Assembly (NCBI GenBank): GCA_030141605.1
Contig: JAQGDQ010002389.1
Location: forward strand, 1-64,000
Direction: 5' to 3'
Source of the DNA: Tubiluchus corallicola
Lineage: Eukaryota; Animalia; Priapulida
Length of the DNA: 64,000 nt
The notes below the pieces were generated by a model. The model made no database searches. It saw only the letters and a program-made list of their open reading frames with translations, and had not been told where the DNA came from. Within the stretch, counting starts at the first letter, position 1, and each line of letters opens with the position of its first letter. Below are positions 22,889 through 64,000 of the stretch, piece by piece. A program made the translations under genes and the position numbers.

Positions 22889-22903
22889 TTTGCTATTACC
22901 TAC

Positions 22904-25212: not shown

Positions 25213-25255
25213 ATCATATTTCTAAGTCAAACAAAAGAATGTATATTAGATAATC

Positions 25256-26266: not shown

Positions 26267-26361
26267 GGCTTTTTTCTTATACTCCTGCTTGTTGAAAATA
26301 ATAAACGCAATCGGATGATAGTATACTCGTTTGGCTCTTAGAAAACGAGTAATAATATTTT

Positions 26362-27912: not shown

Positions 27913-27957
27913 TGGCTTAAAATAACTCTCTATCCGATTTCTAAAATGCTGCTTTAC

Positions 27958-36248: not shown

Positions 36249-36249
36249 A

Positions 36250-37458: not shown

Positions 37459-37480
37459 CCGTATTGATTCACATTCATTT

Positions 37481-38044
37481 CTATGAGCTTTCCTCTGTTA
37501 TACGAATTGTGCTTTCATTCAGAAAATGCCAGGGAAGCGTATCTAAATCCCGCCTTGCTGGCCCTTTAGTCACTTTGCCATATTTGTCAAAATAAGAACC
37601 ATGACACCCACAAGACCAGCCTGACCACTCCCCTCCATGCACACGATTATACTCAACATGTAATGGACAGCCTAAATGCGTACAAAGCCCAATCACAAGC
37701 TGCCATTCTGAAGTATCCTCGCCATGACGAATAATATAAACAGGCTTGTTACGCCATTGTATAACTTTCCGATCACCAGACGCTATATCGGAAATATCAA
37801 TATCAATAAAAGCAGGAGAAGAAAATTCCAAAGCCGCTTTATTAACAACAGAAGAAGGAAATAAACTTCTTAAAAAAGGCCAGCTTAATAAAATAACACT
37901 TAAACTGCTCATAATCTGAATTGTTTTTTTTAACACATCTCGCCGAGCCGCCAGATTATCATTCGCAGGAGTTATAAATAATTTGTTAAAAAGCCTTCTT
38001 GTACGAGATAAAGAAGACGGTTTGTTATGGCGAAAAGTACTCAT
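37481..38044 (-). CDS. petA: Rieske iron-sulfur subunit of a bc1-type complex
   Basis: Tat-like RRDVL plus TM; WRNKPVYI; CTHLGC and CGCHGS boxes; GPA. Confidence 0.92.
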   Translation of the reverse strand: MSTFRHNKPSSLSRTRRLFNKLFITPANDNLAARRDVLKKTIQIMSSLSVILLSWPFLRSLFPSSVVNKAALEFSSPAFIDIDISDIASGDRKVIQWRNKPVYIIRHGEDTSEWQLVIGLCTHLGCPLHVEYNRVHGGEWSGWSCGCHGSYFDKYGKVTKGPARRDLDTLPWHFLNESTIRITEESS

Positions 38045-45636: not shown

Positions 45637-45774
45637 ATATTTTCTTTTTTAGTAACGAATTTTAAATATTTCCTGTGTATAACTTTATAATTAAAGCCAA
45701 AAGTTGTAATTACCTTGTAAGAAACTATATAATAAAATAGAGCAATTCAAAGGGATATGAAAAGGTAGGATTTT

Positions 45775-46995: not shown

Positions 46996-47020
46996 AATTT
47001 AGACTCTAAAATCCACTATG

Positions 47021-47056
47021 AAATGGCTGATAGCGCATCTTGCTTCAGCCATTTTG
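47021..47056 (+). terminator. Hairpin terminator after nlpD
   Basis: AAATGGCTGA ... TCAGCCATTT stem followed by T. Confidence 0.55.
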
Positions 47057-47205
47057 ATTCCAGATATATACTCATATCCTATAGGCAAAAATCCGATCCA
47101 TATTTCTTCCTAAAATAGAAGAGAGATTTGCTTTTTAAAAGGCTTTTTGCTATAATTTTAAAATATCCTCTAAAATAAATGGTATATAATTAAGGCATCT
47201 CTTGT

Positions 47206-47931
47206 ATGATTGTTTTACGCTCACTCCTCTTTAATGGTCTATTTTACTTATGGTCAACTTTTGCTATTCTGGCAGGGTTTCTGCTTTTGCCTTTTCCTAA
47301 TACAGTAATACGGCGCTGGGCGATTATATGGGGGAAGGGAACACGATCCTTGCTTAAATTAATATGCTCTATCAATTATGAAATACGAGGAATGGGCAAT
47401 CTTCCACAGTCCGGAGGCTATATCATCGCCAGTAAACACCAATCCGCATGGGAAACAATCGCCCTCTTTAATATGCTGGCGCCTAATCCTTTCTACGCAT
47501 TAAAAGAAGAGCTCAACAGGATCCCTTTCTGGAAAGCTGTCGCTAAAAAATGTGGCGCTATATTTATCAATAGAAAGAATGGAGCACAGTCTCTAAAATT
47601 ACTGATACAACAAAGCGCTGACATCGTACAAAACCAAAAACAACTCATTATATTTCCAGAAGGAACAAGAACAAAACCAGGAGAAACAAAACCCTACTTT
47701 AGAGGCGTTTCAGCAATCTATAAAAAAGCCAATTGCTCAGTCGTTCCGGTCGCCCTTAATTCAGGGCTCTTCTGGCCAAAAGGGAGTTTTATTAAAAAAC
47801 CTGGCACAATTGTTCTGGAGTTTCTTCCTCCCATTTCGCCAGGAGTAGAATCAAAAGAATTCCTTGCTCAACTCCAAGATAATATAGAAAATACGACTCA
47901 AAAATTACTTCTAGAAGCAACAGAACTATAA
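47206..47931 (+). CDS. plsC: 1-acyl-sn-glycerol-3-phosphate acyltransferase
   Basis: KHQSAWET, FINR, IFPEGTR, VPVALNSG. Confidence 0.9.
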   Translation: MIVLRSLLFNGLFYLWSTFAILAGFLLLPFPNTVIRRWAIIWGKGTRSLLKLICSINYEIRGMGNLPQSGGYIIASKHQSAWETIALFNMLAPNPFYALKEELNRIPFWKAVAKKCGAIFINRKNGAQSLKLLIQQSADIVQNQKQLIIFPEGTRTKPGETKPYFRGVSAIYKKANCSVVPVALNSGLFWPKGSFIKKPGTIVLEFLPPISPGVESKEFLAQLQDNIENTTQKLLLEATEL

Positions 47932-47941
47932 GACAATATTA

Positions 47942-48874
47942 ATGGCTCCTTTTTATGTTTCTCGGCAGTTTTTCATAAAGAGTATCATTGTTTTTATACT
48001 CTTATGGGCCCTCTATGGAGGAGTGCTAATAGGGATCGCTATTGTATTCCTTATGAAAACAACTGATTATCAATATGCTAAAATCTCCCTTTATCCACAT
48101 AAAACGTCTATTGCACTTTATCATCTCTCTTTAAAAGAAAATAATATCCATTTCTACGCTCCAAAAGGAAGCGTCCATATCTCTTTTTTAGCTCCCTGGG
48201 AGCTCAGAGGAAACCTCAAAGAAGCCAAAATAAAAACAGTAGATACAGCCATTGAGCTCTCTGCTACAGATGCGCATTTTCAAATGGATTTATTGGCAAA
48301 AGAGCGCTCATCACTTGCATTATATAAAACAATTTTCTCCTATAATCTTGTTCAAATTCATAATGATATTATAAAAATAGGGTATAAAACAGAAACGCAT
48401 CATGATAAAGATTCATCAGCGTATCGTATGGATTTTTATAGCGATAAGAGCTATTTATCTCTACATGGGTTCACAGATGGTCTTATATTTGATGCAATTG
48501 TAGGAGAGTTTAAGGTAACAAAAGCTTTTGATAACAACGCGCATAAATCTACCCTTGTTGAAATCATAACAGCCTCTGCGCTTTTTTCTTCTCTTGCTGA
48601 AGTAAATGACAGCCAGAAGAGCTATATTTCTTTTGAGGGTCTACTGTCATTTGATCCTTTACAAAAATTTCCTGAAGGGAAGATTCTTTTCAATGCCAGA
48701 AGATTAGATGTAATTTTCTCTTTTCTGAAAAAAAATCAATTAATTGATCAAAAAATAGCGTCCATATTATCTCCTTTATCATTGCGTCCTATAGAAAATT
48801 TACCCTTACTATTTCAGGAAAATCACTTAAAAGTTGGTAATATTCCTATCACTATTCCCCTAGGAATCTATTAG
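47942..48874 (+). CDS. Membrane-anchored hypothetical protein (possibly a divergent DUF2125-like protein, by position)
   Basis: 310-aa ORF coupled to plsC; N-terminal TM, beta-rich body, C-terminal LKVGNIPI. Confidence 0.5.
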   Translation: MAPFYVSRQFFIKSIIVFILLWALYGGVLIGIAIVFLMKTTDYQYAKISLYPHKTSIALYHLSLKENNIHFYAPKGSVHISFLAPWELRGNLKEAKIKTVDTAIELSATDAHFQMDLLAKERSSLALYKTIFSYNLVQIHNDIIKIGYKTETHHDKDSSAYRMDFYSDKSYLSLHGFTDGLIFDAIVGEFKVTKAFDNNAHKSTLVEIITASALFSSLAEVNDSQKSYISFEGLLSFDPLQKFPEGKILFNARRLDVIFSFLKKNQLIDQKIASILSPLSLRPIENLPLLFQENHLKVGNIPITIPLGIY

Positions 48875-49484
48875 CCTTACAGAAAAATATAATAGGCTTT
48901 TATAATCCTGCCACAAATAAGCTATGGCATTTTAAAAAGATTAATATTCCAAAGAGTAGGGTGCTCTTAATTCTCATTTTTCTCATGCGCACTAATGAGA
49001 GAGCTGCTATAGGGTAAAAACATTTTCTGTAAACTGTTGAAGAGAATTCTGACAGCAAAAATATTGTCTGCCATTGTTTATTGCTGCTTAACCGAAAAAT
49101 GGCTGGTGAAAACAAACAGCCAGATAGTGTATAGATTCTTCGAAAAAATTAAGGCTGTGGATTGTGATCGTTTAGAGATTCAAAATAATATTAATTTACA
49201 GCATTAAAATCCATCTCATATAGTTAAAAAATAAAATAATAATTTATTCTTAATTATTTGCAATTTATGTATTATTTATAATTTAACATAATATAAATTA
49301 TGCGACAATTTTCAAGCTATAAAAGAGCGAACAATAAAGTATGTATATTGAAGCGTTATCGCTATAGAATTAAAATAATAACAAACTTCAAGAGTGTTAT
49401 GTCACCTATTACCATCCAAAATACTTTTTTGACGAAACTTCTATAAACCCTCTCTTGTAATACTTTCTTTATTACCAGCCTATA

Positions 49485-49720
49485 TTTGATATAGCTATAT
49501 AAATCCTTTTCACTTGGATATATTTTCTCTAATAGGATTACTAGCTGGTGATAGTAATAGAAAATATAGCAAGATATCCTCTGCCTTTCTGAACAAACTT
49601 GTCCTTCTTTTCTCTTGTAGAAATATGGCATTGCTTATGAAGATGAACATATTTTAGCCAGCCTAGATAACAAGCCTTCCACTTCTTATATCAAAAAATA
49701 TCCGCATTGATAGTGCTATA
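49485..49720 (-). pseudogene. Possible highly decayed IS630-family transposase fragment
   Basis: Broken frames read TINADIF..W and ISNAIF..LLYFLLLSPASNPIRENISK*KGFI, resembling MDNAxFH..LLFLPPYSPDLNPIExxWxxLK. Confidence 0.3.
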
Positions 49721-49721
49721 T

Positions 49722-50155
49722 GAAGCTGGTTTGGTATATATGGCATCTTTCAGAAATTTTAAACAATCCTGAAGTAATGGGTTGGATTTTAGAGAGTTTG
49801 GTTAAGCTTTACCAGTATGGATATGATGCACGGAGGAAAATGTTCTTATTCCTATGCAGACGGATGGAAAGGATCTTACAGGTCAGATTTTTCAGTGGGA
49901 TGAATATTATGGGAAGAAAGGAAGAAAGTTCCAAAGATCAACTTTATTATTGGACCATGCTATTCCCTATGATCGCGGGTATTCATTGACAAATGGTATA
50001 CGTCTATGATGTGTGCTCCGGAAGATTCCTAAGTGATTTGGCATGGGAAATATTGGTGTTAATCCATATGCTGTTCATTATTTAAATATGAAAACCATAC
50101 TTGATGATCCTAAGGCTATTTTTCTATTGATCGATATTTTTCATGCTACAAAACA
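49722..50155 (+). pseudogene. Decayed inverted partial copy of the PL2 pectate lyase gene
   Basis: With two frameshifts and two TGA stops it reads GLVYM/HLSEILNNPEVM..QYGYDA/EENVLIPMQTDGKDLTGQ..LLLDHAIPY..DDPKAIFLLIDIFHATK, matching about 54727-55157 on the minus strand. Confidence 0.93.
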
Positions 50156-51918
50156 AGCTGACAGCGAGTAAAATATTTCCGACTACAAGTGGATATTGAT
50201 GCTATTTGTGCCATTTTTATTCTTACACGCCGTGAGAACATACTTTAATTTGTGTATAACTACATATGCGCTATATCATTAGAAAAGCCCATAAATAATA
50301 AGACATTCCCTATCTTCATACAATCTAATTAGAGTCCGACAACACACCCTTTTCGTATTGCTGTAGAATTTTTGTTGTAGGAGCGTAAACTCCCAAATAG
50401 CGAGCATACACCAATATGATCATGAACATAAAAAGCTAACGGCTAGCATATCAAGTCTTAGTTATCCTCTTATTGGGCGTTTTCTTATGTTTTTGGCTTT
50501 TATAAGCCAGTATGCAGTCATGCTATCATAACATTATCCCCTCTATCCTAATATTAAAGTGAGCTTCATTCCTCTTGATCATTGTAATACTTTGTTTCTT
50601 ATGAACGGGAAAGAGTTTAGAGCCATAAATCTGATGAGCAGACAATCCTTGAATATAATCAATTTATAGCGTATTGGCCGTATTTACGTCTCTTTCCAAG
50701 CAGCCGCAGAAGTAGCATTAAAGTTCGTTAGGAAAATTATATTACTGTAAAAAGAATTATAGAAAGTAAATATATTTAAAAAACATAAATATAACCAACG
50801 TCTTATTTGCCTTCTAAAGGATTCAACAGACTTTTTTCAATACATAAAGCATCTTCAGAAACATGCATATTCCTGCGGTTTTCGGCAGTGAGTTAACTTT
50901 CTTCAGGTCAGAAGCAGAAACGCCTATTAAAAATAGAGCGAATGCTTACGGATTTTGGAAGGGGTAATTATATGGTTTATAATATATGTGCGCTTTCTAA
51001 GATTCAGTTGCATTAAGTTATTGGGAATCCATGTTTTTGGAAGAATTTATTTTGCCGTTACCCATGAGGATATAGATGGAATTTACACAGGAAGTGATGA
51101 TGTAGATACTATGGTATTGATTGTTTTGATAAGTTCACAGACGGAAACAACGAGTATTTCTATTGGCCAGGTAGCTGATAATAGCGATTTTATTGCATCT
51201 GGAGAGGGATTTATGCTTCCTTCCTTAATTCCTTCTTAAAATATTATTCACCTTGATAGCGTGATCTTAAAATACTGACATTATTAATGCCACTTGCCTC
51301 TATCATAAAGATCTAAGAGCGTTAAAGCCATAATAGATAAAAGATATGAAAATTGCATTAAAAATCCCCTACTCCTGCCTCTTTTTCCTTTTAAGGCAAA
51401 AGAATTCATTGAAGTGAAAAACGGGCCTTTGTTCTTAAGGAATATTTTATTTTCTGAAAGAGGGTCTTTGGAAAAAGAGAGAAGATATAAAGATAGGAAC
51501 GATACAAAAAGAATTGGCATGTTTATACATATATAACAACACAATAAACCATTATATATAATGCAATATATTAATATCGTTCTTTTTTTAAAAACAACGC
51601 GATAAAGTTGGTTGTTTTCTACATAAAACATCACAAAAATAACTATATAACAAATGGATATAAATATTTATCAATGTAAAACATTAATAAATTAAAAAAC
51701 ATCTCATTAAACAACATATGAATAGCATTTTTCTTCAATATTTTTCCATTACTTCAATCACGTATAAATCAATATAAAAATATCTTGGAAATAGAGCTAT
51801 AACTTACCTTCTTATTTAAATGTCTCTACAGGCATCTTTTAGCTACCACACTCATCCCCTCTCCTTTTTCTTCTTTGTTCCTTGGCTTGTTTCGATTTTA
51901 TTCATGCTTGAGGCATGA

Positions 51919-51935
51919 TTGGCATCCTTTTTGCT
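51919..51935 (+). promoter_or_regulatory. Sigma54-type -24/-12 promoter
   Basis: TTGGCATCCTTTTTGCT has exact GG-N10-GC spacing, 47 nt upstream of ATG 51983. Confidence 0.6.
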
Positions 51936-51982
51936 CCTATAAAAACAACTCACAAACATAATTAAGCAAAAGGATCATAAAT

Positions 51983-52630
51983 ATGAAACAGGGCGTTATA
52001 AAAAAAATCTCTTTTATCACACTTTTATCTTTATTGATTTCTTTTTTACAAATTACACAATCCTATGCCGCAAAAGAAAATAATGGCTTTATTTTCAATA
52101 CAGAGGCTAAAAATTTACCAAAAGAAATAAACTTCCCTAAATGGGATTATGCTTTTGAAACCTCTATGAAAAAACTTGCAGACAAAACAGAAGAAAAAAC
52201 ATTTAAAAAATGGAAAGAATTTATTGAAACAGCCCAAACATACCAACGGCATAAACAGTTAATGGCTGTAAACGCATATGTTAACAAACTGAAATATGTT
52301 AAAGATATCAATAACTGGGGAAAAAAAGATTATTGGGCTTCTATAGACGAAACACTGAAAAAAAATAGTGGAGATTGCGAAGATTACGCCATTTTAAAAT
52401 ATATGACATTAAAAGCCTTAGGATGGGATATGAAAAATATAACACTGCTTGTCGTTAGAAATACAAAAGGAAAAAACTTTATACACGCCGTTTTAGCTAT
52501 TCACTCTCCACAAGACAATAAAACATATATCATGGATAACAGATATTCTTATGTTTATCATGATAAAAAAGTTAGCAGTTATGAGCCTCTCTACGCTATT
52601 AATGAAAATAATTTATGGTACTATAATTAA
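51983..52630 (+). CDS. Periplasmic transglutaminase-like cysteine peptidase (BTLCP / peptidase C93, LapG-like)
   Basis: Signal peptide; VNAYVN, D..NWGKKDYWAS, GDCEDYAILKY, HAVL, YIMDN (Cys-His-Asp triad). Confidence 0.92.
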   Translation: MKQGVIKKISFITLLSLLISFLQITQSYAAKENNGFIFNTEAKNLPKEINFPKWDYAFETSMKKLADKTEEKTFKKWKEFIETAQTYQRHKQLMAVNAYVNKLKYVKDINNWGKKDYWASIDETLKKNSGDCEDYAILKYMTLKALGWDMKNITLLVVRNTKGKNFIHAVLAIHSPQDNKTYIMDNRYSYVYHDKKVSSYEPLYAINENNLWYYN

Positions 52631-53317
52631 GGTAATTATACGCGCTTGGCAACACTTCAATAATCTAACATACTAAGCTCTACAAGGATAACAGAGGTGT
52701 TTTAGATATTAAAAAATTTGATAACTTAGTAGAATTTCAGAAAGAATTTTCAACTGAATTAAAATATATTAAGCATTTAATAAAATTATGTTGGCAATAT
52801 AAAGTAAACTGCCTTCATTGTGGAAGAGTTGAAAAAATATGAAAATTAAAATCACCTACTATGTTTAAGTGTGGCACTTGTAACCGCCAGTTTTCTGTAA
52901 GAGTTAGCACTATCTTTGAAGGGGATTCTGCTTTACCTTTACAAAAATGGTTTTTAGCTTAAATAAATCACAAGAAAGAACGACTTGGTAAAGACTTGGG
53001 AGTAAGACAAGCTACGGCTTGATTTATGTAGCAACTCATTAGATACGCCCTTACTTATAATGCTATAGAAAAAACGATTAAAGAATATAGAATGGTGAAA
53101 CTCGCACAAATATACCATTGAAGGTGCATTTCTCTTATTTTAAAAGATATCTAAATGGTACACACTACCAAATAAGTCAAAAGCACTCAGGGGAATATAT
53201 ATAAACTCTTTTATATACAAGTATAACAATAGAGAAAGCACTAATTGTGCTATGTTTAATGAATCTATGAATTTGGTGTTTGGTAAAAGATTAGAGTATA
53301 AAAAGTTAGTTAGCTAA
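52631..53317 (+). mobile_element. IS1595-family (ISXO2-like) element remnant, internally deleted and multiply disrupted
   Basis: Reads CLHCG..FKCGTCNRQFSVRVSTIFE..LPLQKWFLA*..LGKDLGVRQATA*FM, then TN/TIEGAF../KR..YNNR..GKRLEYKKL. Candidate left end GGTAATTAT at 52631. Confidence 0.88.
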
Positions 53318-54061
53318 CCCGATATATTCAACAACTTCATACTGGCTAATAGATTGATTGGGATTGTAATGTACATTTACAGAACATATATGAAGCTTAT
53401 CTTTAAAAAAAGTATTTTCTAAGTTAAATTGATTTATTATTCCATCTGCAAAAATTACTTTTTTGCTTTTATTTTCTATACTTTGTATAATCCCTTTATA
53501 TGTTTTAGCCTCTCCTTTAGAAACTGTTTCTAAGCTTAATTCTACGCTCTTATATAATTCACATTCTTTTTTTAAAGCAGATGATACGTTTTTTAAAGCA
53601 AATACGCTATCGTGTATTTGCTTTGTTGTATCTTTATCTAATGAATATTTTATATCCTCTTTACCTGGTGCTTGTATATAAAAATTAATTTGGTTAACAG
53701 TATTAAAATCTTCTGTAACATTATGTAATGTGTTTACTTGATTTTTAGCTTCTTTATCTTTTTCTTTAAACTTACTTAATACGCTATCCATATTATTTTC
53801 AGCATGTTTTAGAGTATTTATAACATACTTGCCAAACTCATAAACACCGTGACTAACTATACCAGTTATAATTGGAACCATAACATATTGTGAAAATTCA
53901 AAAATTACAGAGCCATCTTTTACACTTTGTATACTAAGAGATGAATTTTTATTAGTAAATCTCGCATACTCCTTTTTTAAGCCAGTAAGATAATTAGTAA
54001 AATCAGATAAAGACAAGCCTTCTTTTCTATCATAATCAATACGAATCTGTAACTTTTCCAC
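53306..54061 (-). CDS. Hypothetical 251-aa protein, candidate IS passenger gene
   Basis: Intact GTG-start ORF, very AT-rich, convergent with and overlapping the transposase remnant stop. Confidence 0.75.
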   Translation of the reverse strand: MEKLQIRIDYDRKEGLSLSDFTNYLTGLKKEYARFTNKNSSLSIQSVKDGSVIFEFSQYVMVPIITGIVSHGVYEFGKYVINTLKHAENNMDSVLSKFKEKDKEAKNQVNTLHNVTEDFNTVNQINFYIQAPGKEDIKYSLDKDTTKQIHDSVFALKNVSSALKKECELYKSVELSLETVSKGEAKTYKGIIQSIENKSKKVIFADGIINQFNLENTFFKDKLHICSVNVHYNPNQSISQYEVVEYIGLAN

Positions 54062-54281
54062 TCTACAAAACCAATTGCTAAAGTATTAATCGTTATATAA
54101 TATACTCTAGTTTATATTAGTGAATTATAATAATAGCTAGATATATTTATAGCTCTATACAGCTTTTAGATTCCCAAAAGTATCCTACTGTAGTTGAATG
54201 ACCATAAAATAAATAGCTAAGAGCTATTTTGAAGCTTAACTGTAATATTATCAAATAAAGCAGAGTAGCAATCTTACCATT

Positions 54282-54383
54282 GAAATACTTGCTTGTACTT
54301 TTTCAACGGCTTGTGCCATCTTTCGTCCAGGTAACGATATAAGTGCCGAAATACTTGCTTGTACTTTTTCAACGGCTTATGCC
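54282..54383. repeat. Two 36-bp direct repeats separated by 30 bp
   Basis: GAAATACTTGCTTGTACTTTTTCAACGGCTT(G/A)TGCC at 54282-54317 and 54348-54383; one mismatch. Confidence 0.9.
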
Positions 54384-54388
54384 CCGTT

Positions 54389-54426
54389 TAAAATAAAGCG
54401 CTGTATTTTAAAGAAAATACAGCGCT
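54389..54426 (-). terminator. Intrinsic terminator of the pectin operon
   Basis: Perfect 13-bp stem AGCGCTGTATTTT-aaag-AAAATACAGCGCT (54397-54426), followed on the minus strand by TTATTTT; 23 nt after the PL2 stop. Confidence 0.8.
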
Positions 54427-54449
54427 CATAATAATTATCTAAAAAATTC

Positions 54450-56156
54450 TTAACGTGTTACACGATAAAAAATATTTCTATCATATGTTGTTTTTACACT
54501 TCCGTCTTCAAAAAGATACTCTCCGTGAATATAAGCACTATCAGATAAATAAAGTGGAATATCTTTCATCTCCTCTAATGCCGCAATAAGAGAAACTAAA
54601 GCAAACGCCTCTATAGAGGCAAATCTTGTATAAATATGATCAGAAGACTCTATAAAATACCCTTTTATATAACGATTCTTTAAAATATTTTCAGCAATAC
54701 GAAGTCCTAAATTCAAGTAAGCTTTTCGCTTTGTCGCATGAAAAATATCAATCAATAGAAAAATAGCTTTAGGATCATCAACTGTGGTTTGCATATTTAA
54801 ATAATGAACACCATGTGGATTAGCACCAATATCTCCCATCTCAAATCCCTTAACCATCTGTCGCAGCACACGCCATAGACGTATGTCCTTGGCTAATAAA
54901 TACCCACGAGCATAGGGAATAGCATGATCCAACAATAAAGTCGATCGTTTGAATTCTCTTCCTTTCTTCCCATAATATCCATCCCGCTGAAAAACTTGTC
55001 CCGTAAGATCCTTGCCATCCGTCCACATAGGAATAAGAGTATTTTCCTCAGCATCATATCCATATTGAGCAAACTTGACTAAACCCTCCAAAGCCCAATT
55101 CATCACCTCGGGATTGTTTAAAGCTTTTGAAAGATGCATATACACTAAACCAGACTCAGATAAAATAGTCTTCTGGTTTCTAAATAAAACGTTCCCCTCA
55201 TAGGCAACAGAACCAAACTCAGGTCCAAACTGCCGCTGCGCACGATCACCATACTTGGAGCTTGTATCCTTATCATTCTTAGGAGGCCAATCACGGCGCC
55301 TCGGAGAAGAATATTGATACACAGGAAGACCTGTCTCAGGATGGCGTGCCATAACATATTGTTTCGCTAAATGATGCCCCCAGGCTGCCGCTTGCTCATC
55401 CCTTGTGTATTTATAAAGCATACTTGCTGCGTAAATCAAATCGCTCCCAGCATTAATAAATGTCAATCCCTTTGTCTCTGCCATCTTAGGAAGAGAGTTC
55501 TGAACAACATCCACTTTTATAGCCTTGAAAATATCATCATTATAAACCTTGCTGTAAGAGCCATGGCGATTCATATCAAGCGTCTTCCAATCATCAACAT
55601 GCGCATTCCAAAGCGCTTTTAAAAGTCTAACTGTCTTGTCAGACTCAATCTGGTAGAAAAAATCATAATAAGGAAAATGGTTCTTTAATTCATGAACCAT
55701 ATTCTTATCATCTGGCCCTTCAAGCTCTAACGTATCTAAATTAATAAAACGATGTCCCCCCCAATACAAAAGACCATTCTCATCCTGATAATGATCAAAC
55801 ATATATTGAGTGATTTCTTTCGCTTTCTGCTCGTATAGATCCTTCCCTGTAATCCGTGATAAAATAACCAGCGTTTTCAAAAGCGTCTGCTGATTCGCAA
55901 AATTAGTGATCACAGCTTCACGACCATCTTCAAAACGCCATTTGACAAGCTCTCCCGTATCAATATTAATTCCATCCGCAAGCAAAGGAGAAGGCATGAC
56001 TGAACTATAACCATTTTTGAAAATTGTCTCCATAGCCTGCTCAACAGTTTGCACAATTTTTATTTCCCTTTCTGTAGCAAACCCTTGTGACCATCCCACA
56101 ATAAAAAACATACCGAAACAAAATAATAAGCCTTTTCCTGATTTTCTAAAGAACAT
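54450..56156 (-). CDS. Polysaccharide lyase family 2 pectate lyase (PelW-like) with signal peptide
   Basis: PLLADG, NFANQQ, YWGGHRF, VHELKNH, WNAHV, ETKGLTFINAG, GDRAQRQFGPEF. Confidence 0.92.
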   Translation of the reverse strand: MFFRKSGKGLLFCFGMFFIVGWSQGFATEREIKIVQTVEQAMETIFKNGYSSVMPSPLLADGINIDTGELVKWRFEDGREAVITNFANQQTLLKTLVILSRITGKDLYEQKAKEITQYMFDHYQDENGLLYWGGHRFINLDTLELEGPDDKNMVHELKNHFPYYDFFYQIESDKTVRLLKALWNAHVDDWKTLDMNRHGSYSKVYNDDIFKAIKVDVVQNSLPKMAETKGLTFINAGSDLIYAASMLYKYTRDEQAAAWGHHLAKQYVMARHPETGLPVYQYSSPRRRDWPPKNDKDTSSKYGDRAQRQFGPEFGSVAYEGNVLFRNQKTILSESGLVYMHLSKALNNPEVMNWALEGLVKFAQYGYDAEENTLIPMWTDGKDLTGQVFQRDGYYGKKGREFKRSTLLLDHAIPYARGYLLAKDIRLWRVLRQMVKGFEMGDIGANPHGVHYLNMQTTVDDPKAIFLLIDIFHATKRKAYLNLGLRIAENILKNRYIKGYFIESSDHIYTRFASIEAFALVSLIAALEEMKDIPLYLSDSAYIHGEYLFEDGSVKTTYDRNIFYRVTR

Positions 56157-56167
56157 TTTTCCAATCC

Positions 56168-57289
56168 TTACGTTAACTTCTCCTGACCTGTATTTAAATT
56201 TCGCAAAATTTCCGCATAAGCCATCATGAAAATACCCACCCCTTTTCCGTCATTCTGAACAATAGGCTCTGAAATATAATAATCAAAAGAACCATCACGG
56301 TACGGATAAGTATCATCTATTCTCCCTAAACCAGCCATAACACATATATTTTCCAGCTGCTCATCCTTTAAAAACAGATCAACAACACTGTTAAAACTTT
56401 CCTGACCATACGAAAAATAAACCTCCGGCAAGTAACCAAGGCGCACTCCCTTCATTAAAGTATAGGAAAACATCAAAGAAGATGAGACTTCTATATAATT
56501 CCCTTCACGAGACTTCTGATCTATAACCTGATACCATAATTGCGTCTTATCATCCTGAAACGATAAAATGGACTTCATCGCCTCTCGCAACAAAAGCTCA
56601 AGATAACGATAATCTTCAAAAACCGTTTCTGACATAGCTTCCAAAATGTCAACCAGAGACATAACATACCATCCCATCGCACGCCCCCAAAAACATGGCG
56701 ATACACCCGTTTTAGGGTGAGCCCACCTCTTAAGCCGAGCTTCATCATAACCATGGTAATAAAGACCACTCTTCTCATCACGCATGAAAGAGTTAACATT
56801 ACGAATTTGACCAGTAATATCATAATAATGCCTCTTTCCAGTCCATAACGTATCATAACGCATGTAAAAAGGCTGCCCCATATACAAACCATCCAACCAA
56901 ACCTGATGAGGATAGGATTTTTTATGCCAGAAATTTCCAGACTGTGTACGAGGATGAGATTGAAGCTGGCTATAAAGTGTATCAAGAGCAATCTTAAACT
57001 TCTTTAGAGGATTTTCTTGATAAAGCGATACCAATGTATAACCAGGCTGAATATTATCAATATTAAAATCATCAAGCTTATAAGTCGGAATATCCCCGTT
57101 TGAACGAATCAGCTGATCAAAATAATGAAAAACAAAATCATAAAATTGCCGTTCCTTTGTAATCGTGTAAATATCAAAACTTCCCTTTAAAACACACCCA
57201 TCCTCATAACACCATTGACCATCCTTATAAAAAGAATAATTTTGAATATAGGCGTTGATAAAATCAGCTGATTTCTGAATTCTGCCCAT
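56168..57289 (-). CDS. GH105 unsaturated (rhamno)galacturonyl hydrolase (YteR-like)
   Basis: WCYEDG, NIDNI, FWHKK.YP.QVWLDGLYM, FWGRAMGWY, ND.KGVG. Confidence 0.92.
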   Translation of the reverse strand: MGRIQKSADFINAYIQNYSFYKDGQWCYEDGCVLKGSFDIYTITKERQFYDFVFHYFDQLIRSNGDIPTYKLDDFNIDNIQPGYTLVSLYQENPLKKFKIALDTLYSQLQSHPRTQSGNFWHKKSYPHQVWLDGLYMGQPFYMRYDTLWTGKRHYYDITGQIRNVNSFMRDEKSGLYYHGYDEARLKRWAHPKTGVSPCFWGRAMGWYVMSLVDILEAMSETVFEDYRYLELLLREAMKSILSFQDDKTQLWYQVIDQKSREGNYIEVSSSLMFSYTLMKGVRLGYLPEVYFSYGQESFNSVVDLFLKDEQLENICVMAGLGRIDDTYPYRDGSFDYYISEPIVQNDGKGVGIFMMAYAEILRNLNTGQEKLT

Positions 57290-58865
57290 AAGATATTTCT
57301 CCTAATAATTCTGTATTCTCTTGAATAATTGAGTTTCCAACCGCATTTTCTACTAACACATTTTCTAAAAACAACCCTTCTACATTATTGAGATATAACC
57401 CCATAGAAGATACAGGATCAAAAAAGCTCATCATTGCAGGATATCCACTAGAAGCATCCGCTTTCATAGAAACACGATAGTTTTTTATAACCAAATTTTT
57501 TATCTTTTTTTCCGGCAAACCATAAACAAAACCGGCCGCGTACTCCGCACCATGGCAAAGGATATCCTCAAGAAAAATATTCTTGATCTCCGGTGTGCCG
57601 GAATCAACCGGTAGAATCTCCTTTGTCCATATATATTCCGACTCTCCATTCGGATCACAGCAATAGAACGCATTAATGACAAAAGGCGTGCAAACAGAGT
57701 CCATAACGATATTCTTAATCGTGATATTATCAATAATTCCATCCTTACCACGACCACGGCACGTTTTAATACGAATACCCCTGTCTGTTTGATTCATCAC
57801 ACAATCTTTGACGGAAACATCTTTCACACCTCCGGCCATCTCGCTGCCAATAACAACGCCGCCATGACCCGATTCCATTAAGCAATTGGAAATCAAAAGA
57901 GAAGAAGAAGGGCAGCGGAGACGGCGCCCTAAATAAATCTTTCCCGACTTAATGGCAATGCAATCATCCCCAACAGAAAATCTAACTCCAGAAATACGAA
58001 CCATATGGCACGATTCAGGATTAATACCATCTGTATTTGGAGAACTATGTTGATTCTTGATAAATAAATTAACAAAAGTAAGAGACTCGGAAAAAATGGG
58101 ATGAACCGTCCAAGAAGGAGAATGAGAAAGCATAACACCCTCCACCAGAATATTCCGACATTTTGAGAAATAAAGTAAACGAGGACGCCAAGCGTCTATT
58201 TTCTCTTTCGGGGAATGCCACCAATTTTCAAAGCTGGCATTCCCATGAATAGACCCCTCTCCTGTAATCGTAACATCCTCTATATCAACCCCTGTTAATA
58301 AAGAGGCGAAACAATCCAGTGGATTTCCTTCCCACGATCCCAGATATTCTTCCTGGCTATAAGAATAATCTTCCAGTAAACCTGGTAAAATCGGATAAAA
58401 ATCACGATGAAAAAGCCCTTTTAATTCACTCCCTTTTTCAAGCAAAAGTGTAATATGACTCTTTAAAAAAAGAGGTCCGCTCATATATGTTCCTGGAGAA
58501 AAAACAATACAGCCATTTTTCGGGCAAGAGCTAATCGCTGCCTGCAAAGCCGCTGTGTCGTTCGATCTGCCATCTCCTACAGCACCAAACTTTTTGACAG
58601 AAACAACAGAAGTTTCCTCCTTGGTCTGAAAGGAATATGAAAATCTTTCCCCCTTATAGGCAACAGAGATATTATACAAACTTCCTGGGCTTAAGCGAAA
58701 AAGTGTAAAAACATTCTGTCGCGTCTTAAAAGCAAAAGAATTTCCAAGAAAAATATCTTTTTCTTCCACCGTCTTAAAACATCCCTCACCAGACAGCTCA
58801 AAACTTGCTGTGCGTGATGTCGTACTAATCAACTCTAAAGATAATGTCATAGAGAGAAACCCCAT
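57264..58865 (-). CDS. GH28 polygalacturonase (probably cytoplasmic, exo-acting) with short N-terminal beta domain
   Basis: FGAVGDG, NTDG, GDDCIAIKSG, GHGG..IGSE, RIKT catalytic motifs; no signal peptide. Confidence 0.93.
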   Translation of the reverse strand: MGFLSMTLSLELISTTSRTASFELSGEGCFKTVEEKDIFLGNSFAFKTRQNVFTLFRLSPGSLYNISVAYKGERFSYSFQTKEETSVVSVKKFGAVGDGRSNDTAALQAAISSCPKNGCIVFSPGTYMSGPLFLKSHITLLLEKGSELKGLFHRDFYPILPGLLEDYSYSQEEYLGSWEGNPLDCFASLLTGVDIEDVTITGEGSIHGNASFENWWHSPKEKIDAWRPRLLYFSKCRNILVEGVMLSHSPSWTVHPIFSESLTFVNLFIKNQHSSPNTDGINPESCHMVRISGVRFSVGDDCIAIKSGKIYLGRRLRCPSSSLLISNCLMESGHGGVVIGSEMAGGVKDVSVKDCVMNQTDRGIRIKTCRGRGKDGIIDNITIKNIVMDSVCTPFVINAFYCCDPNGESEYIWTKEILPVDSGTPEIKNIFLEDILCHGAEYAAGFVYGLPEKKIKNLVIKNYRVSMKADASSGYPAMMSFFDPVSSMGLYLNNVEGLFLENVLVENAVGNSIIQENTELLGEISYGQNSEIS

Positions 58866-58896
58866 ACCAAAGAATAGTTATTATATGCGCTAGATC

Positions 58897-60189
58897 CTAG
58901 CGAGAGCGTTTAAGGCGCCTTAAAATCCGATTGCCATCACTCACCATCTTTTCAGCGGCTTGCTCAACGGACATTTTGTCATATCCAAGGCTTTCTATAA
59001 TCTCTTCATAAAGCGCATACATTTGTGCATTTTCAAAAAATGGTGATTCAGGAAGCCCCTTATTATCACGAACATATAAATATCCTTTGTAAACAAGATC
59101 ATTCTCATCAAGAAACCCCTCTTCTCTCAAAATTGTAGAGGCTCTACGGCTAAGTGGAATGCCTCGGATTGTCTTAAGAATTCTTACAGCATCTGGGTCA
59201 TTTATCAGAAAATCTAGCAGAAGAGCCGCTTCTTTAGGGTGTTTGGTATTTTTGTTAATCGAAAACATCATGGAAACCTTCTGATAAATTCCTGAATCTT
59301 TCGCTCCTTCTATCGTAGGATAATCCGCAAGAATAATTTCCTGCCCTGGCTTTAATGTCGCAACAAATTTAGGAATCGACGTATTCCATTGTGGAGAACC
59401 AGCAAATTCACCATTAATCCATGCCCCCGCTTCGTTAATAACAACATTGCCAAAAGATGAGCGATATTTCATAGGAGGCAGCGCATGGCTATCGATAAGA
59501 GATTGATAAAAACGAAATCCGTCAAGCCATTCGCTAACAGAATGATTCATGCGGCCATCTTGATTGATAATGGGCTTGCCTGTCTTTTGCACTAAATAAG
59601 AACGAATAAGAAAAACTCTCTCCCGCTCATCCGCATCAAACGGATAATATTTATTGCCTAAACGCTTAGTAAATTGCCTTCCCGCTACAGAAAGATCATC
59701 CCATGTCTTCGCAAAAGAAGCGTCCGCCTTCTCATAAGTCGTTTTGTTGAGATAAAATAAACGCGCCGTTAACGCTGTCGGTATACCGTTTAATTTGTCG
59801 TTGACCGTAACGGATTCTAAATCCTTTTTATCAAACTGGCTGAGATCAATGACATCCCCTAGGGTATTAAGATCATAAAACCCATCACCTTTCGCTGAAA
59901 AAATAGGAATCCACGGATAGTTAATCTGCATTAGATCAGGCGCTGTTCTCCCAGCAATCTGCGTTGTGATCTTTTCAAAATGCCCCCCCCAACCAGTATA
60001 TTCTGCCTTTACCTTAATATGAGGGTATTTACTTTCAAAAAGACGAACGGCTTGAATCGTCGCTTTATGGCGAGAATCACCCCCCCACCAAGAAAAACGA
60101 ATTTCAACCTGATCTTGAGAAAATGATAACGAAATGCCCACCATTGTAAATAATGAAAATACCAGTAAAAAAATACCTTTTTGTCTCAT
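58897..60189 (-). CDS. togB: Oligogalacturonide ABC transporter substrate-binding protein
   Basis: Signal peptide; FSWWGGDSRH, KAEYTGW.GH, QINYPW..FS..GDGFYDL, HPKEAA. Confidence 0.85.
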   Translation of the reverse strand: MRQKGIFLLVFSLFTMVGISLSFSQDQVEIRFSWWGGDSRHKATIQAVRLFESKYPHIKVKAEYTGWGGHFEKITTQIAGRTAPDLMQINYPWIPIFSAKGDGFYDLNTLGDVIDLSQFDKKDLESVTVNDKLNGIPTALTARLFYLNKTTYEKADASFAKTWDDLSVAGRQFTKRLGNKYYPFDADERERVFLIRSYLVQKTGKPIINQDGRMNHSVSEWLDGFRFYQSLIDSHALPPMKYRSSFGNVVINEAGAWINGEFAGSPQWNTSIPKFVATLKPGQEIILADYPTIEGAKDSGIYQKVSMMFSINKNTKHPKEAALLLDFLINDPDAVRILKTIRGIPLSRRASTILREEGFLDENDLVYKGYLYVRDNKGLPESPFFENAQMYALYEEIIESLGYDKMSVEQAAEKMVSDGNRILRRLKRSR

Positions 60190-60211
60190 GAGTAATTCCT
60201 CCCATAGAATC

Positions 60212-61348
60212 TTACGAATCTAGATTTTTTTCTGTTTTATGATCAAATAGATAACATTTTTCTAAATCAAAGAAAAAACGTCCCTTCCCTAATATCTTTT
60301 TTTGCAAAATACTATCTGTGATATGAGAAGACGACTCCCGTACAATCGTATTGTATCCTGCAAAATCAAAATAAATAAAAATCTCATGCCCCATATTTTC
60401 CACAATTCTGATCGGGCACTCGACAGTATTTTCCTGAACAGAATTGCCCTCATTCATAAAAGAGATCGCTTCGGGTCTTAACGCAACAAAGATTTTCTTT
60501 TCCGAGTAATTCTTTAAACTCTGCGCTTTCTTATCAGAAAAACGGAAATCAGAACCGGAAATATTGACATAAAGATCCCCCCCTTTGGAAAACAAGCTTC
60601 CTTCCATCATATTAATCGCCGGAGAGCCGATAAACTCTGCGACAAATTTATTCGCAGGCTTGTTATAAAGAGCATAAGGTGTATCAGTCTGCTGTATCTC
60701 ACCCAGTTTCAATACACACACGCGATCCGCCATCGTCATCGCCTCAACTTGATCATGGGTAACATAAACAGATGTGGATGGCTGGCCATCACGCCGCAGA
60801 TTATTATGAAGCTCAGTTAAACGAATACGCATAGCGGCCCGTAATTTCGCGTCCAAGTTAGAAAGAGGCTCATCAAAAAGAAATACCTCCGGCTTCTTCA
60901 CAATCGCACGACCAACAGCAACCCGTTGAGCCTGACCACCAGAAAGCTGCTTGGGTAAACGATCCATCAAATCTTCAATCTCAAGATTTTTCGCAGCCTC
61001 AGATACACGCTTGTTAATCTCATTTTCAGGCAACTTTGATAAACGCAAACCAAAATCTAAATTCTGAAACGTTTTCATATGAGGATAAAGTGCGTAATTC
61101 TGAAAAACCATCGCAATACCACGCTCTTTGGGCAAAAGATTATTGACCACTTTTCCAGCAATCCTAATTTCCCCGCCGGAAATACTCTCTAAACCAGCAA
61201 TCATCCGTAATGTCGTTGATTTAGCACATCCAGATGGACCAACAATCACCATAAACTCACCATCTTTGATCTCAAGGTCAATGCCATGAACAGCCTTAAA
61301 TCCATTAGGATAACGTTTCTCAACTTTATTTAAAATAACCTCTCCCAT
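60212..61348 (-). CDS. togA: Oligogalacturonide ABC transporter ATP-binding protein
   Basis: MGEVILNKVEKRYPNGFKAVHG, GPSGCAKST, LSGGQAQR. Start reset to ATG 61348 behind AAGGAG. Confidence 0.88.
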   Translation of the reverse strand: MGEVILNKVEKRYPNGFKAVHGIDLEIKDGEFMVIVGPSGCAKSTTLRMIAGLESISGGEIRIAGKVVNNLLPKERGIAMVFQNYALYPHMKTFQNLDFGLRLSKLPENEINKRVSEAAKNLEIEDLMDRLPKQLSGGQAQRVAVGRAIVKKPEVFLFDEPLSNLDAKLRAAMRIRLTELHNNLRRDGQPSTSVYVTHDQVEAMTMADRVCVLKLGEIQQTDTPYALYNKPANKFVAEFIGSPAINMMEGSLFSKGGDLYVNISGSDFRFSDKKAQSLKNYSEKKIFVALRPEAISFMNEGNSVQENTVECPIRIVENMGHEIFIYFDFAGYNTIVRESSSHITDSILQKKILGKGRFFFDLEKCYLFDHKTEKNLDS

Positions 61349-61377
61349 AATATTCTCCTTTATTAGTAGCTTTAAAA

Positions 61378-62289
61378 TTATCCCTTTACACCGGTCGTCA
61401 TAACACCACCAACAAAATATCGCTGTGCGAAAAAGAAAATTACTATCGATGGTAAAAGCGATAATGTTGACATCGCTAAAACACGATTCCACTCCACTGC
61501 TGAACTCACATCAATCGACATCTTTAAAGCTAACGCTATTGGATATTTTTCAACGCTTGATAAATAAATCAGCGGCCCCATAAAATCATTCATTGACCAC
61601 ATAAATTGAAAAAGCCCAACCGCAATGATCGCAGGCTTAATAATCGGAAAAATAACATAAATTAAAACTTGAAACGAATTACAGCCATCAATAAATGCTG
61701 CCTCTTCCATATCGCGCGGAATCCCACGAAGAAACTGTATTAACATGAAGACAAAAAATGCATCCGTCGCGAACGCAGAGGGAATATAAAGTGGCATAAA
61801 AGTATCAAGCCAACCAAATTCTCGGAACATTAAATATTGTGGTATACGCAATACCGTCTGAGGAAGTAATATAGTCGCGATTAATGTCGCAAATAAAAAT
61901 TTCTTAAACGGTATATCAAAACGCGCAAAGCCATAGGCAACCAATGTTGCAGAAACAATCGTGAAAATAACTTTCGGAATGATAATCTGAAACGTATTTA
62001 AAAAATAAGTAGTAAACGTATACTCGCTTCCTGTCTTCCAACCCTCAATATATCCATCTAAAGTCGGATCCGTAGGAAATGGATGAATCTCGGAAAAAAT
62101 CTGATAATTCTGCTTAAATGAAGCGCCAACAAGCCAAATAAGCGGGTATAACATAATAAAACCAATAATAATCAGTATCGTATACCGGATATAAGCGTTG
62201 ATTTTCTCCTTTCTCCTCGTCTTTAAAATTTCTTCTGAAATATTGCCTTCTTGAGAAGGTGTGAAATATTCTGTTGCTACGTTTGTCAT
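61378..62289 (-). CDS. togN: Oligogalacturonide ABC transporter permease
   Basis: EEAAFIDG (EAA loop), FQFMWSMNDFMGPLIY. Confidence 0.85.
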   Translation of the reverse strand: MTNVATEYFTPSQEGNISEEILKTRRKEKINAYIRYTILIIIGFIMLYPLIWLVGASFKQNYQIFSEIHPFPTDPTLDGYIEGWKTGSEYTFTTYFLNTFQIIIPKVIFTIVSATLVAYGFARFDIPFKKFLFATLIATILLPQTVLRIPQYLMFREFGWLDTFMPLYIPSAFATDAFFVFMLIQFLRGIPRDMEEAAFIDGCNSFQVLIYVIFPIIKPAIIAVGLFQFMWSMNDFMGPLIYLSSVEKYPIALALKMSIDVSSAVEWNRVLAMSTLSLLPSIVIFFFAQRYFVGGVMTTGVKG

Positions 62290-62292
62290 ATC

Positions 62293-63174
62293 CTATTTCT
62301 CCTTCTCTCCAGAATAAAACACCCAGTATTTTGACGAACGGAAAACAATGGCTGTAAAAATACCTACAATGATAAATAAAACCCATGATAAGGCCGCACC
62401 ATAGCCCATATTGAAATATTTGAAAGATTCCTCGTAAATCATCAGCGATAACAAATAAGTGGACTTTAAAGGGCCCCCGCCTGTAATGATATAAGGGCCA
62501 TTAAATTCCTGAAATGCCTGGACAGTCTGCATAATAAAATTAAAAAAGATCACAGGCGTAATAATCGGAATCGTAATCTTAAATAAAACCTGCCATTTAG
62601 ACGCGCCATCAATAGAGGACGCCTCGTACAATGAAGCTGGAACATTCTGAAGAGCGGCAAGAAAAATAACCATGGCTGAGCCAAATTGCCAAATTCTTAA
62701 AAGAGTAACCGTAAATAAAGCATAACCCGGTGTTCCAAGCCAATTAACTGCCTCAAAACCAAACGTTCCAAGCACCATGTTCATAAGACCATCAATAGAA
62801 AAAACATACCGCCATAAAACTGCTATAGCGACACTGCCTCCTAAAATCGACGGTATATAATAAGCCGACCGAAAAAAGTTTATCCCACGTAATTTGAAAT
62901 TAAGAACAAACGCTATTAATAAAGCAAAAGCTAGCTTCAAAGGAACAGTCATAAAAACATAAATTAATGTCACAACTAGTGATTTCATAAATAAATCATC
63001 TTCAAATAACATATATTCATAATTTTCCAAACCCAAAAAAAGAGGTGGATCCATTAAATTATAATCTGTAAAACTCAGAACAAATGATGTAAAAAATGGA
63101 TAACATGTAAATGCCATCAACCCCAAGATATAGGGGAGAACATAGGCAAAGCCTAGCCACTTGTTTTCATACAT
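62293..63174 (-). CDS. togM: Oligogalacturonide ABC transporter permease
   Basis: MYENKWLG start, YYIPSILGGSVAIAVLW, WQFGSAM, FQEFNGPY. Confidence 0.87.
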   Translation of the reverse strand: MYENKWLGFAYVLPYILGLMAFTCYPFFTSFVLSFTDYNLMDPPLFLGLENYEYMLFEDDLFMKSLVVTLIYVFMTVPLKLAFALLIAFVLNFKLRGINFFRSAYYIPSILGGSVAIAVLWRYVFSIDGLMNMVLGTFGFEAVNWLGTPGYALFTVTLLRIWQFGSAMVIFLAALQNVPASLYEASSIDGASKWQVLFKITIPIITPVIFFNFIMQTVQAFQEFNGPYIITGGGPLKSTYLLSLMIYEESFKYFNMGYGAALSWVLFIIVGIFTAIVFRSSKYWVFYSGEKEK

Positions 63175-63226
63175 CTTTATACCTCCCTTTAATTTATGAC
63201 TCGTTTATAGCGCCAACTCTACTTCT

Positions 63227-64000
63227 TTACGGCCATCCGGATCCGGCAGGAAGACAATGTCGCATGTTGCTATACATCTCCTCAAATAAATCACGATTTT
63301 CTACCAAAGACAGAGAAACAGCCATAGGATCGTTAAGAAAAATATTAAACACCCTTTCCTTATCACAAGAGGAAACAGCTTCCACCAAACCGTTCTGGTT
63401 ACTGATATGGGACAAAGTGATATCTTCAATAACTTCAGGAAGGCGGCCAGCCACTACAGGACGAACAGAATCCTTCACAAAAACCGCATTCGTCTCAACA
63501 ATAGAGTCTAATGGAAGAGCTTTCATTTGACCGTGGTTAGGGAAATTAACATTGCCGCAATAACTCTCTATACCCGAAAGCGCTAGCAGTTGCTTGATAA
63601 AATCCTCACCGCTCTTTTTTAAGGTTATCGCCTCCTCACCAGAAGCTATTTTACGAGAGCGCTCCCTCAGTGCATCTCTATTTTTTATTCGCCAAGAAAC
63701 CGGCGTTAAGCCAAAATCCCATTCTTTGAAATTCCGTAAATACCAGCTCTGTGGAAAAAAATCCACCAAATGCCGATCCCCTGCCGCAGCTACAGTATGA
63801 AACCGCTTGTATAAATCAAACTTTACCCTTTCTCGCGAAGAAAAATAATGACTTTTTTCATTGGAAGGAGACTCGTCCTTGCTTATCCATATCCCCTCCT
63901 CAGAATAAACATCCACAAGATGCTCCCAGAGAGGGATTAAATCACGATCTTTCCAACGAATCTTATCAACCCAGGTAAAATGGTTAATACCTAACACATT
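63227..64000 (-). CDS. GH4 glycoside hydrolase, C-terminal part (alpha-galacturonidase-like by context); 5' end outside the window
   Basis: GINHFTW, AAAGDRHL, SGE, NVNFPNHGQ, VETNA, F.NDP. Confidence 0.85.
   Translation of the reverse strand, partial: NVLGINHFTWVDKIRWKDRDLIPLWEHLVDVYSEEGIWISKDESPSNEKSHYFSSRERVKFDLYKRFHTVAAAGDRHLVDFFPQSWYLRNFKEWDFGLTPVSWRIKNRDALRERSRKIASGEEAITLKKSGEDFIKQLLALSGIESYCGNVNFPNHGQMKALPLDSIVETNAVFVKDSVRPVVAGRLPEVIEDITLSHISNQNGLVEAVSSCDKERVFNIFLNDPMAVSLSLVENRDLFEEMYSNMRHCLPAGSGWP

Follow-up and report, generated by a model that had tools for sequence, protein, structure and literature searches.

Was a complete pathway for pectin oligomers put together recently from enteric and gut-anaerobe genes, or has it long been a single unit in the genome that carries it? 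The question is raised by eight co-oriented minus-strand open reading frames (ORFs), which ORF listing and family searches give in the order GH4-togM-togN-togA-togB-GH28-GH105-PL2. They stand at the end of a 64,000-nt stretch of DNA (the window; positions 1 to 64,000 of contig JAQGDQ010002389.1, filed under the priapulid Tubiluchus corallicola in assembly GCA_030141605.1) that belongs to an alphaproteobacterium. An earlier note on this DNA had read them as a hybrid of the enteric Tog transporter with hydrolases of Firmicutes. We consider it fairly probable that they form instead an intact, long-resident operon encoding a self-contained homogalacturonan-oligomer pathway, an old and deep-branching version of the known togMNAB-GH28-GH105 (+ GH4) block together with PL2; that they were patched together recently from genes of enterics and gut anaerobes is unlikely.

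Structure of the operon

The operon consists of the following features:

63227-64000, minus strand: GH4, C-terminal 257 aa (PF11975, 119 bits); 5' end beyond the window edge
62293-63174, minus strand: togM, ABC permease (PF00528) with an EAA-type loop
61378-62289, minus strand: togN, ABC permease (PF00528) with an EAA loop
60212-61348, minus strand: togA, ABC ATPase (PF00005 and OB_MalK), ATG start with an AAGGAG site
58897-60189, minus strand: togB, oligogalacturonide-binding protein (PDB 2uvh, 391 bits), predicted signal peptide
57264-58865, minus strand: GH28 polygalacturonase, PglA-like (PF00295, 134 bits), start possibly at 58850
56168-57289, minus strand: GH105 unsaturated galacturonyl hydrolase of YteR/PicA type (PF07470, 296 bits)
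54450-56156, minus strand: PL2 pectate lyase (PF06917, 646 bits), predicted signal peptide
54396-54427, minus strand: intrinsic-terminator-like hairpin closing the operon (14 pairs, 5 of them G-C, T-rich tail)

The intergenic gaps from GH4 to PL2 are 52, 3, 29, 22, 31, -26 (an overlap) and 11 bp, ribosome-binding sites precede most of the start codons, and the hairpin begins 22 bp past the PL2 stop; the region has 16 terminator-like sites, where shuffled sequences have 6.8 ± 2.7. The ORFs, the short gaps and the hairpin bear out the earlier description of a single tight operon closed by a terminator, and the genes are presumably co-transcribed. GH4 is truncated by the window edge at 64000, and the 5' end and promoter of the operon lie outside the window.

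The lyase

The best solved relatives of the PL2 protein are VvPL2 (5a29) and YePL2A, and its predicted model (predicted local distance difference test score, pLDDT, 86.9) has the (alpha/alpha)7-barrel fold of the family, with TM scores of 0.92 to 5a29 and 0.89 to 2v8i. Residues H135, E156, K158, R197, H198 and R305 are retained, and with them the metal-binding site and the two catalytic arginines. The position equivalent to Glu515 holds His, as in VvPL2 and PelW, and the loop after the RHG motif is also common to those two enzymes. Lys301 occupies the site of YePL2A K291, where the PelW rows of the alignment carry Trp; a structure of the YePL2A K291W mutant exists, going by its PDB title, and we take Trp at this position to be linked to exolysis. 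Because Lys is kept here, the enzyme is probably endo-acting, and it is probably periplasmic, with a basic and hydrophobic N-terminus that resembles a signal peptide by hydropathy rather than by a dedicated predictor. In YePL2A the catalytic residues are Arg171 and Arg272 and the metal site is His109/Glu130/His172, and endo and exo modes of PL2 enzymes are described in the same source (PMC10992409; this and the other papers cited here are cited from excerpts).

The assignment of the lyase to a pelW-type system did not hold. PelW (PL2 subfamily 2, a cytoplasmic exo-lyase) is rejected as its identity by a score of 517.5 bits to the PelW equivalog NF041904, whose cut-off is 1000 bits, by the predicted signal peptide and by Lys301. 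In a tree of 52 rows the window PL2 is the earliest branch of a clade with a support of 100 that contains PelW, VvPL2 and the fusobacterial, Vibrio Tog-linked and acholeplasma enzymes, with the periplasmic YePL2A apart. Its best identities are 48-50%, and the best named matches (45-48%) are fusobacterial enzymes carrying signal peptides; a single-protein scan of genome contigs returned no PL2 matches. How PL2 enzymes came to act exolytically could be studied in this naturally occurring, deep-branching protein.

The transporter

Two CUT1 permeases, an ATPase and a binding protein stand in the order M-N-A-B with their motifs intact, among them GPSGCAKST, LSGGQ, FLFDEP and VTHD in TogA. TogB, whose N-terminus has a basic start and a hydrophobic stretch, matches the solved TogB of Y. 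enterocolitica (2uvh) at 391 bits, whereas the next, unrelated solute-binding proteins reach 112, and it falls in the Tog clade in trees. TogB binds saturated and unsaturated digalacturonides (PMC8839585), and by this homology the window TogMNAB would import oligogalacturonides.

TogM is at best 72% identical to known proteins (71% to Vibrio tritonius and Klebsiella, 70% to Niveispirillum, 62-66% to rhizobia and rhodobacters), TogN is 57-68% identical to permeases of Tog loci, and TogA is 57-60% identical to gammaproteobacterial and fusobacterial homologs against 49-56% for alphaproteobacterial TogA. The top three TogB matches among 1.84 billion representatives have 44-46% identity. Concatenated trees (35 rows by FastTree; a quick tree of 24 rows, with 11 near-duplicate or long rows dropped; 26 rows for togM, togN and togB) place the window inside the Proteobacteria clade (97), with Niveispirillum and Gammaproteobacteria (98) and outside the gammaproteobacterial clade (100), while in a TogB-only tree of 39 representatives the window protein has no settled position. 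On 19 rows, approximately unbiased (AU) tests reject both Fusobacteriota (p 0.0002) and Bacillota (p 0.0016) as the group to which the transporter belongs, and its origin in either phylum is rejected as well. The earlier identification of the transporter as the Dickeya/Yersinia/Vibrio system was therefore right in that its nearest named kin are gammaproteobacterial (togM 70-72%), but the window proteins branch outside the enteric and Vibrio clade.

The hydrolases

GH28 carries the catalytic motifs NTD277, GDD299, GHG333 and RIK365, and its solved relative is a Thermotoga-type exo-polygalacturonase (3jur). The best NCBIfam model is PglA (NF051860), to which it scores 444 bits, below the cut-off of 600, and by this model it is not a PglA equivalog. 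Its best identity is 53-54%, with the best named matches in Clostridia (50-53%) versus 36-41% in Alphaproteobacteria.

The best solved relatives of GH105 are 4wu0 (315 bits) and YteR (1nc5, 212 bits), and it carries the WLDGLYM motif at 131 (W131-L-D133), the Asp of which is presumably catalytic. Enzymes of the YteR/YteZ type remove unsaturated galacturonic acid from oligogalacturonides (PMC7267202), and Ogl and YteR have both been described as sources of 4-deoxy-hexosulose uronate (DHU; PMC12838403). The best identity of the window protein is 47%. In a careful tree of 19 rows it lies in a clade of Tog-linked GH105 (100/99), best placed with Alphaproteobacteria (79/83), and AU tests of groupings with Bacillota and Fusobacteriota give p values of 0.073 and 0.26, so that its affinity appears weakly alphaproteobacterial. 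Neither GH28 nor GH105 has a signal peptide by N-terminal hydropathy.

The GH4 fragment finds its best solved match in the alpha-galacturonidase LplD (3fef, 166 bits), and its best identity overall is 50%; taken together, GH28 and GH4 have their best matches in Clostridia, Bacilli and Treponema. The part that bears the CHEV motif lies upstream of 64000, outside the window; CHEV is present in all 120 of the best GH4 homologs listed and in five distinct close homologs from the compared loci, with CHGV in the distant ones. The protein is likely an alpha-galacturonidase of the LplD type. That hydrolases of this kind are typical of Firmicutes agrees with the matches of GH28 and GH4, but Tog, GH28 and GH105 also form one alphaproteobacterial block and are not confined to Firmicutes.

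The proposed pathway

The families, motifs and predicted localisation support the logic of the pathway first proposed for this locus, with an exported lyase, Tog import and hydrolytic finishing in which GH105 stands in for Ogl. PL2, if exported as predicted, would cut de-esterified homogalacturonan into unsaturated oligomers in the periplasm by metal-dependent beta-elimination. TogB would bind saturated and unsaturated dimers and trimers, and TogMNAB would import the oligomers. In the cytoplasm GH105 would remove the unsaturated end as DHU, the task of Ogl in enterics, while GH28 would trim saturated oligomers from the end and GH4 would split digalacturonate to galacturonate. From there galacturonate could follow UxaC-UxaB-UxaA, and DHU could reach 2-keto-3-deoxygluconate by way of KduID, with kdgK also in the presumed route; of these genes uxaB alone is seen in the window. 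As a pectin pathway the operon is compact and open to assay, and it gives a pointer to what its uncharacterised alphaproteobacterial host feeds on.

Gene order in other genomes

Compared loci were chosen as matches, and they show presence rather than frequency. The order togM-togN-togA-togB-GH28-GH105 occurs in nine alphaproteobacterial loci, GH4(CHEV)-togMNAB-GH105 in Nitratireductor and togB-GH105 in Niveispirillum. Two Bacillota loci (L265 and L266) have GH105-togB-togM-togN-GH28-GH4, with uxaB in L265 and in a third locus, L267. Fusobacteriota have GH28<togN<togM<GH105 divergent from togB-togB-PL2(-togA), and gammaproteobacterial loci have togMNAB-PL2 (five) or PL2-togMNAB (one). Every adjacency in the window operon except GH105-PL2 is found elsewhere. 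These arrangements do not support a hybrid of enteric Tog with Firmicute hydrolases, since Tog, GH28 and GH105 are one block in Alphaproteobacteria (in the same order), Fusobacteriota and Bacillota; TogMNAB is not just an enteric and Vibrio system but part of a block in three phyla.

Of 351 genomes from the alphaproteobacterial class two have a close TogB homolog, as do 9 of 301 from the order to which Agarivorans belongs and 4 of 401 Bacillota. PL2 occurs in 8 of 190 Fusobacteriota (seven strong matches, one weak), and PglA-type GH28 in none of 351 gammaproteobacterial genomes. We kept 160 PL2 loci (80 of 108 and 80 of 201), 102 of them with at least 3 kb of upstream sequence. GH105 stands directly upstream of PL2 in none of the 160; as the scans relied on two restrictive patterns, which let most PL2 of enterobacteria and Vibrio escape, this is less than a full survey. 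TogB and GH105 occur together in eight of them, all in the fusobacterial layout. The full eight-gene order is absent among the 160 PL2 loci and the 45 long TogB loci listed (some of which repeat one record), so that an identical operon in a single donor lineage was not encountered there, and in a literature search largely without subscription journals no publication describing a Tog-GH28-GH105-PL2 operon came up. Among the blocks compared, the window copy is the most complete; what did not turn up elsewhere is the full order, and the chemistry itself is known.

Two more distant arrangements were also seen. Acholeplasmataceae and related metagenome-assembled genomes carry a distant togB-togM-togN block beside PL2, and in the haloarchaeon Halosolutus PL2 is followed directly by a CHEV-type GH4, with GH28 nearby.

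Host and residence of the operon

The host is an alphaproteobacterium by SdhA, for which all 12 matches listed are alphaproteobacterial (64-66% identity), and a divergent one by SerS, which is at most 60% identical (best 57-60%) to homologs among 301 Pseudomonadota genomes. The synonymous codon use of the operon lies at a distance of 0.415 from 13 minus-strand core genes and 1.285 from 11 plus-strand ones, the two strands being 1.154 apart for core genes, and the native codon-use scores of the operon genes other than the GH4 fragment (0.16-0.20) fall within those of core genes (0.144-0.221). Across the whole window the strand-specific codon bias is strong, with T3 about 0.45 and C3 about 0.10 in minus-strand genes and A3 about 0.33 in plus-strand genes; a bias of this strength is found in many host-associated bacteria.

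In one sequencing run (X1) the contigs covering the core genes (44399-52935) and the operon (53037-64000) are equally deep, at 14.5, and depth is 13-15 over 8001-28000, which includes the uxaB locus. These contigs break at 52936-53036, between the core genes and the operon side, and a contig of a second run (X2) appears to bridge the break, judging by differences listed at 52951, 53036 and 53069. Both runs are of one sample, possibly the source of the window, and the agreement in depth is a consistency check rather than independent evidence. The operon-side X1 contig extends about 7.9 kb beyond the window and covers the 5' part of GH4. On the core-gene contig we found a copy of part of the lyase gene:

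49717-50152, plus strand: decayed, inverted partial PL2 duplicate (codons about 332-476), 82.6% nucleotide identity over 436 bp with two gap openings and a frameshift

Because so decayed a copy lies nearby, the operon has probably resided long in this host; it is intact, and native in codon use and depth.

Weighing the alternatives

Several results speak against a single old block. AU tests reject a Tog grouping with the rhizobia and rhodobacters (p 0.004), which share its gene order, and one with just Niveispirillum (p 0.017); they do not reject a position as sister to all Gammaproteobacteria (p 0.23). In all three of its trees GH28 falls with Fusobacteriota and Clostridia (96 in a quick tree of 51 rows, 85 with 29 rows and 83/92 in a careful tree of 22 rows), and the GH4 fragment, in a tree of 30 rows, lies near Treponema among Bacillota (92, unstarred, with 3 of 27 branches starred) and apart from the GH4 of Nitratireductor. 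The GH4 fragment also has the lowest native codon-use score (0.092, versus 0.144-0.221 in core genes). Most trees are quick ones, and composition differs strongly between their rows. From the tree positions of GH28 and GH4, differing histories of genes within the operon are possible.

According to the likeliest alternative, GH28, GH4 and perhaps GH105 reached a proteobacterial togMNAB(-PL2) backbone from gut anaerobes (Clostridia, Fusobacteriota or spirochaetes), through an old transfer or by replacing genes in place, and the whole was then ameliorated. We regard this as possible but doubtful. It agrees with the clostridial matches and tree position of GH28, and with a GH4 near Treponema and Bacillota while Tog is firmly proteobacterial. 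However, an alphaproteobacterial grouping of GH28 is not rejected by AU tests (p 0.25 and 0.18), the best GH105 tree is alphaproteobacterial, and the order matches alphaproteobacterial loci gene for gene. The AT-rich composition of the window proteins (the FYMINK fraction of Tog is 0.35, against 0.25-0.28 in alphaproteobacterial Tog) also pulls identities towards low-GC anaerobes.

We find it unlikely that the whole operon arrived intact, as an island from one unsampled donor lineage. The low-GC flank at 48-54 kb (0.28-0.32), the RloG-like ORF and possible transposase remnant (zinc-ribbon, weak) that flank the 3' end, the rarity of TogB among alphaproteobacterial genomes and the equal distance of every protein from its known relatives would all suit such an arrival. 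The identity of each operon protein to its best relative lies between 44 and 72%, and there is no recent donor in the collections searched. The absence of the order from the PL2 and TogB loci listed, the fully native strand-specific codon bias and the long residence indicated by the decayed PL2 copy argue against it.

Misassembly or contamination, for which only the X1 break between core genes and operon speaks, is very improbable in view of the equal depth on both sides, the X2 contig that appears to span the break, the native strand-specific codon use and the PL2 duplicate on the core-gene contig, and contamination is rejected by depth and codon use.

An intact, long-resident operon of old block type is therefore the reading we prefer. 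More speculatively, and with little confidence, it may be a relic of an ancestral Tog pathway that united GH4, GH28 and GH105, kept by free-living Alphaproteobacteria, with PL2, kept by Gammaproteobacteria; its exported Lys-type PL2, at the base of the clade from which the cytoplasmic, exo-acting PelW arose, would be a naturally occurring stage in the change from endo to exo action, and the operon would serve an undescribed, low-GC, host-associated alphaproteobacterial lineage living on pectin.

The uxaB locus and other features of the window

Two further units lie far from the operon, uxaB at a distance of about 39 kb:

14262-15686, minus strand: uxaB, tagaturonate reductase (NF002969, 519 bits against a cut-off of 359); best matches in the plasmid collection 41-43%
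16129-20003, plus strand, divergent from uxaB: dctPQM of a transporter of the TRAP type (tripartite ATP-independent periplasmic) and an lgoD-like Zn dehydrogenase; dctP and dctM above their cut-offs

The dehydrogenase is 49% identical to E. coli lgoD and 54-56% to other enterobacterial homologs. The best PDB matches of DctP are 4ovt and 4o8m, whose ligands we take to be L-fuconate and L-galactonate, and in E. coli L-galactonate is converted to tagaturonate and then altronate. Together the three elements are likely a module for uptake and catabolism of L-galactonate. A link of the operon to uxaB had been proposed: the gene is indeed present, but it is distant and sits with the TRAP and lgoD-like genes, and because these neighbours fit the L-galactonate route, uxaB would at best be a later step common to both routes.

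Near the 3' end of the operon, a 251-aa low-GC ORF at 53306-54061 (minus strand) matches the clusters RloG protein (0.95) and DUF7946 (0.91) by Atlas features, with no match in Pfam or the plasmid collection. A broken zinc-ribbon ORF at 52798-53100 (plus strand) resembles the start of an IS1595-family transposase (the match at 52798-52959 has an E value of 0.022, below the cut-off). A 66-bp tandem duplication at 54282-54383 is single-copy in the X1 contig, and positions 54316-54348 are matched by a 130-bp record whose depth of 85 suggests a short repeat that recurs in several copies elsewhere. A transglutaminase-like cysteine protease (LapG-like, PF06035; 51983-52630, plus strand) stands alone in a low-GC stretch.

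At 35919-38044 (minus strand) a Rieske gene and cytochrome b are followed by an ORF of 109-132 aa in the position of petC. It has a signal-like start and a C-terminal anchor that by eye resembles the one in cytochrome c1; it has no CxxCH in any frame, no Pfam match and no Atlas match of at least 0.9, and it is possibly a haem-less cytochrome c1 remnant.

Comparison with known systems

The Agrobacterium locus atu3130-atu3132-pglA-picA and its equivalents in rhizobia and rhodobacters share the order togMNAB-GH28-GH105 with the window. The Agrobacterium pglA (Atu3129) is in an operon with picA, with a galacturonate TRAP transporter nearby (PMC6683767), atu3130 and atu3132 are named for oligogalacturonide transport (PMC9138961), and picA and pgl have orthologs in Ensifer (PMC4051167). 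In the rhizobial and rhodobacter loci no Ogl was seen and kduID is often nearby, and alphaproteobacterial loci of this kind have an AraC regulator. Unlike the window they lack PL2, their proteins are 35-66% identical to those of the window, their Tog does not form one clade with that of the window, and the window GH28 falls below the PglA cut-off.

In Fusobacteriota (Cetobacterium, Fusobacterium) the cluster comprises GH105, togM, togN, GH28, two copies of togB, PL2 and sometimes togA and uxaB, but it forms two divergent units in another order, its Tog grouping is rejected, and a search for GH4 in two Cetobacterium genomes found none. The Bacillota loci (L265-L267) have all three hydrolases joined with Tog and uxaB as a single unit, again in another order, without togA or PL2 and with a rejected Tog grouping; the LplD- and YteR-type proteins of Bacillus are the best solved matches of the window GH4 and GH105.

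The nearest named Tog kin are pelW-togMNAB of Dickeya and Yersinia and togMNAB-PL2 of Vibrio and Agarivorans (togM 70-72%, togA 57-60%, togB 41-46%), with which the window shares the order M-N-A-B. In Yersinia pelW-togMNAB is described together with PelP, Ogl and KdgR (PMC5559549). The window PL2 belongs to the same large clade as the enteric and Vibrio enzymes and lies downstream of togB as in Vibrio. The Dickeya, Yersinia and Vibrio loci, as far as the excerpts of that paper go, use Ogl and KdgM, and they are without PglA-type GH28, close GH105 or GH4, whereas the window has a Tog outside their clade and a PL2 with a predicted signal peptide, Lys in place of Trp and 518 bits to a PelW model that demands 1000. 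In its working the operon resembles the Agrobacterium Tog-pglA-picA locus and the Vibrio togMNAB-PL2 locus joined together, and it is a member of neither clade.

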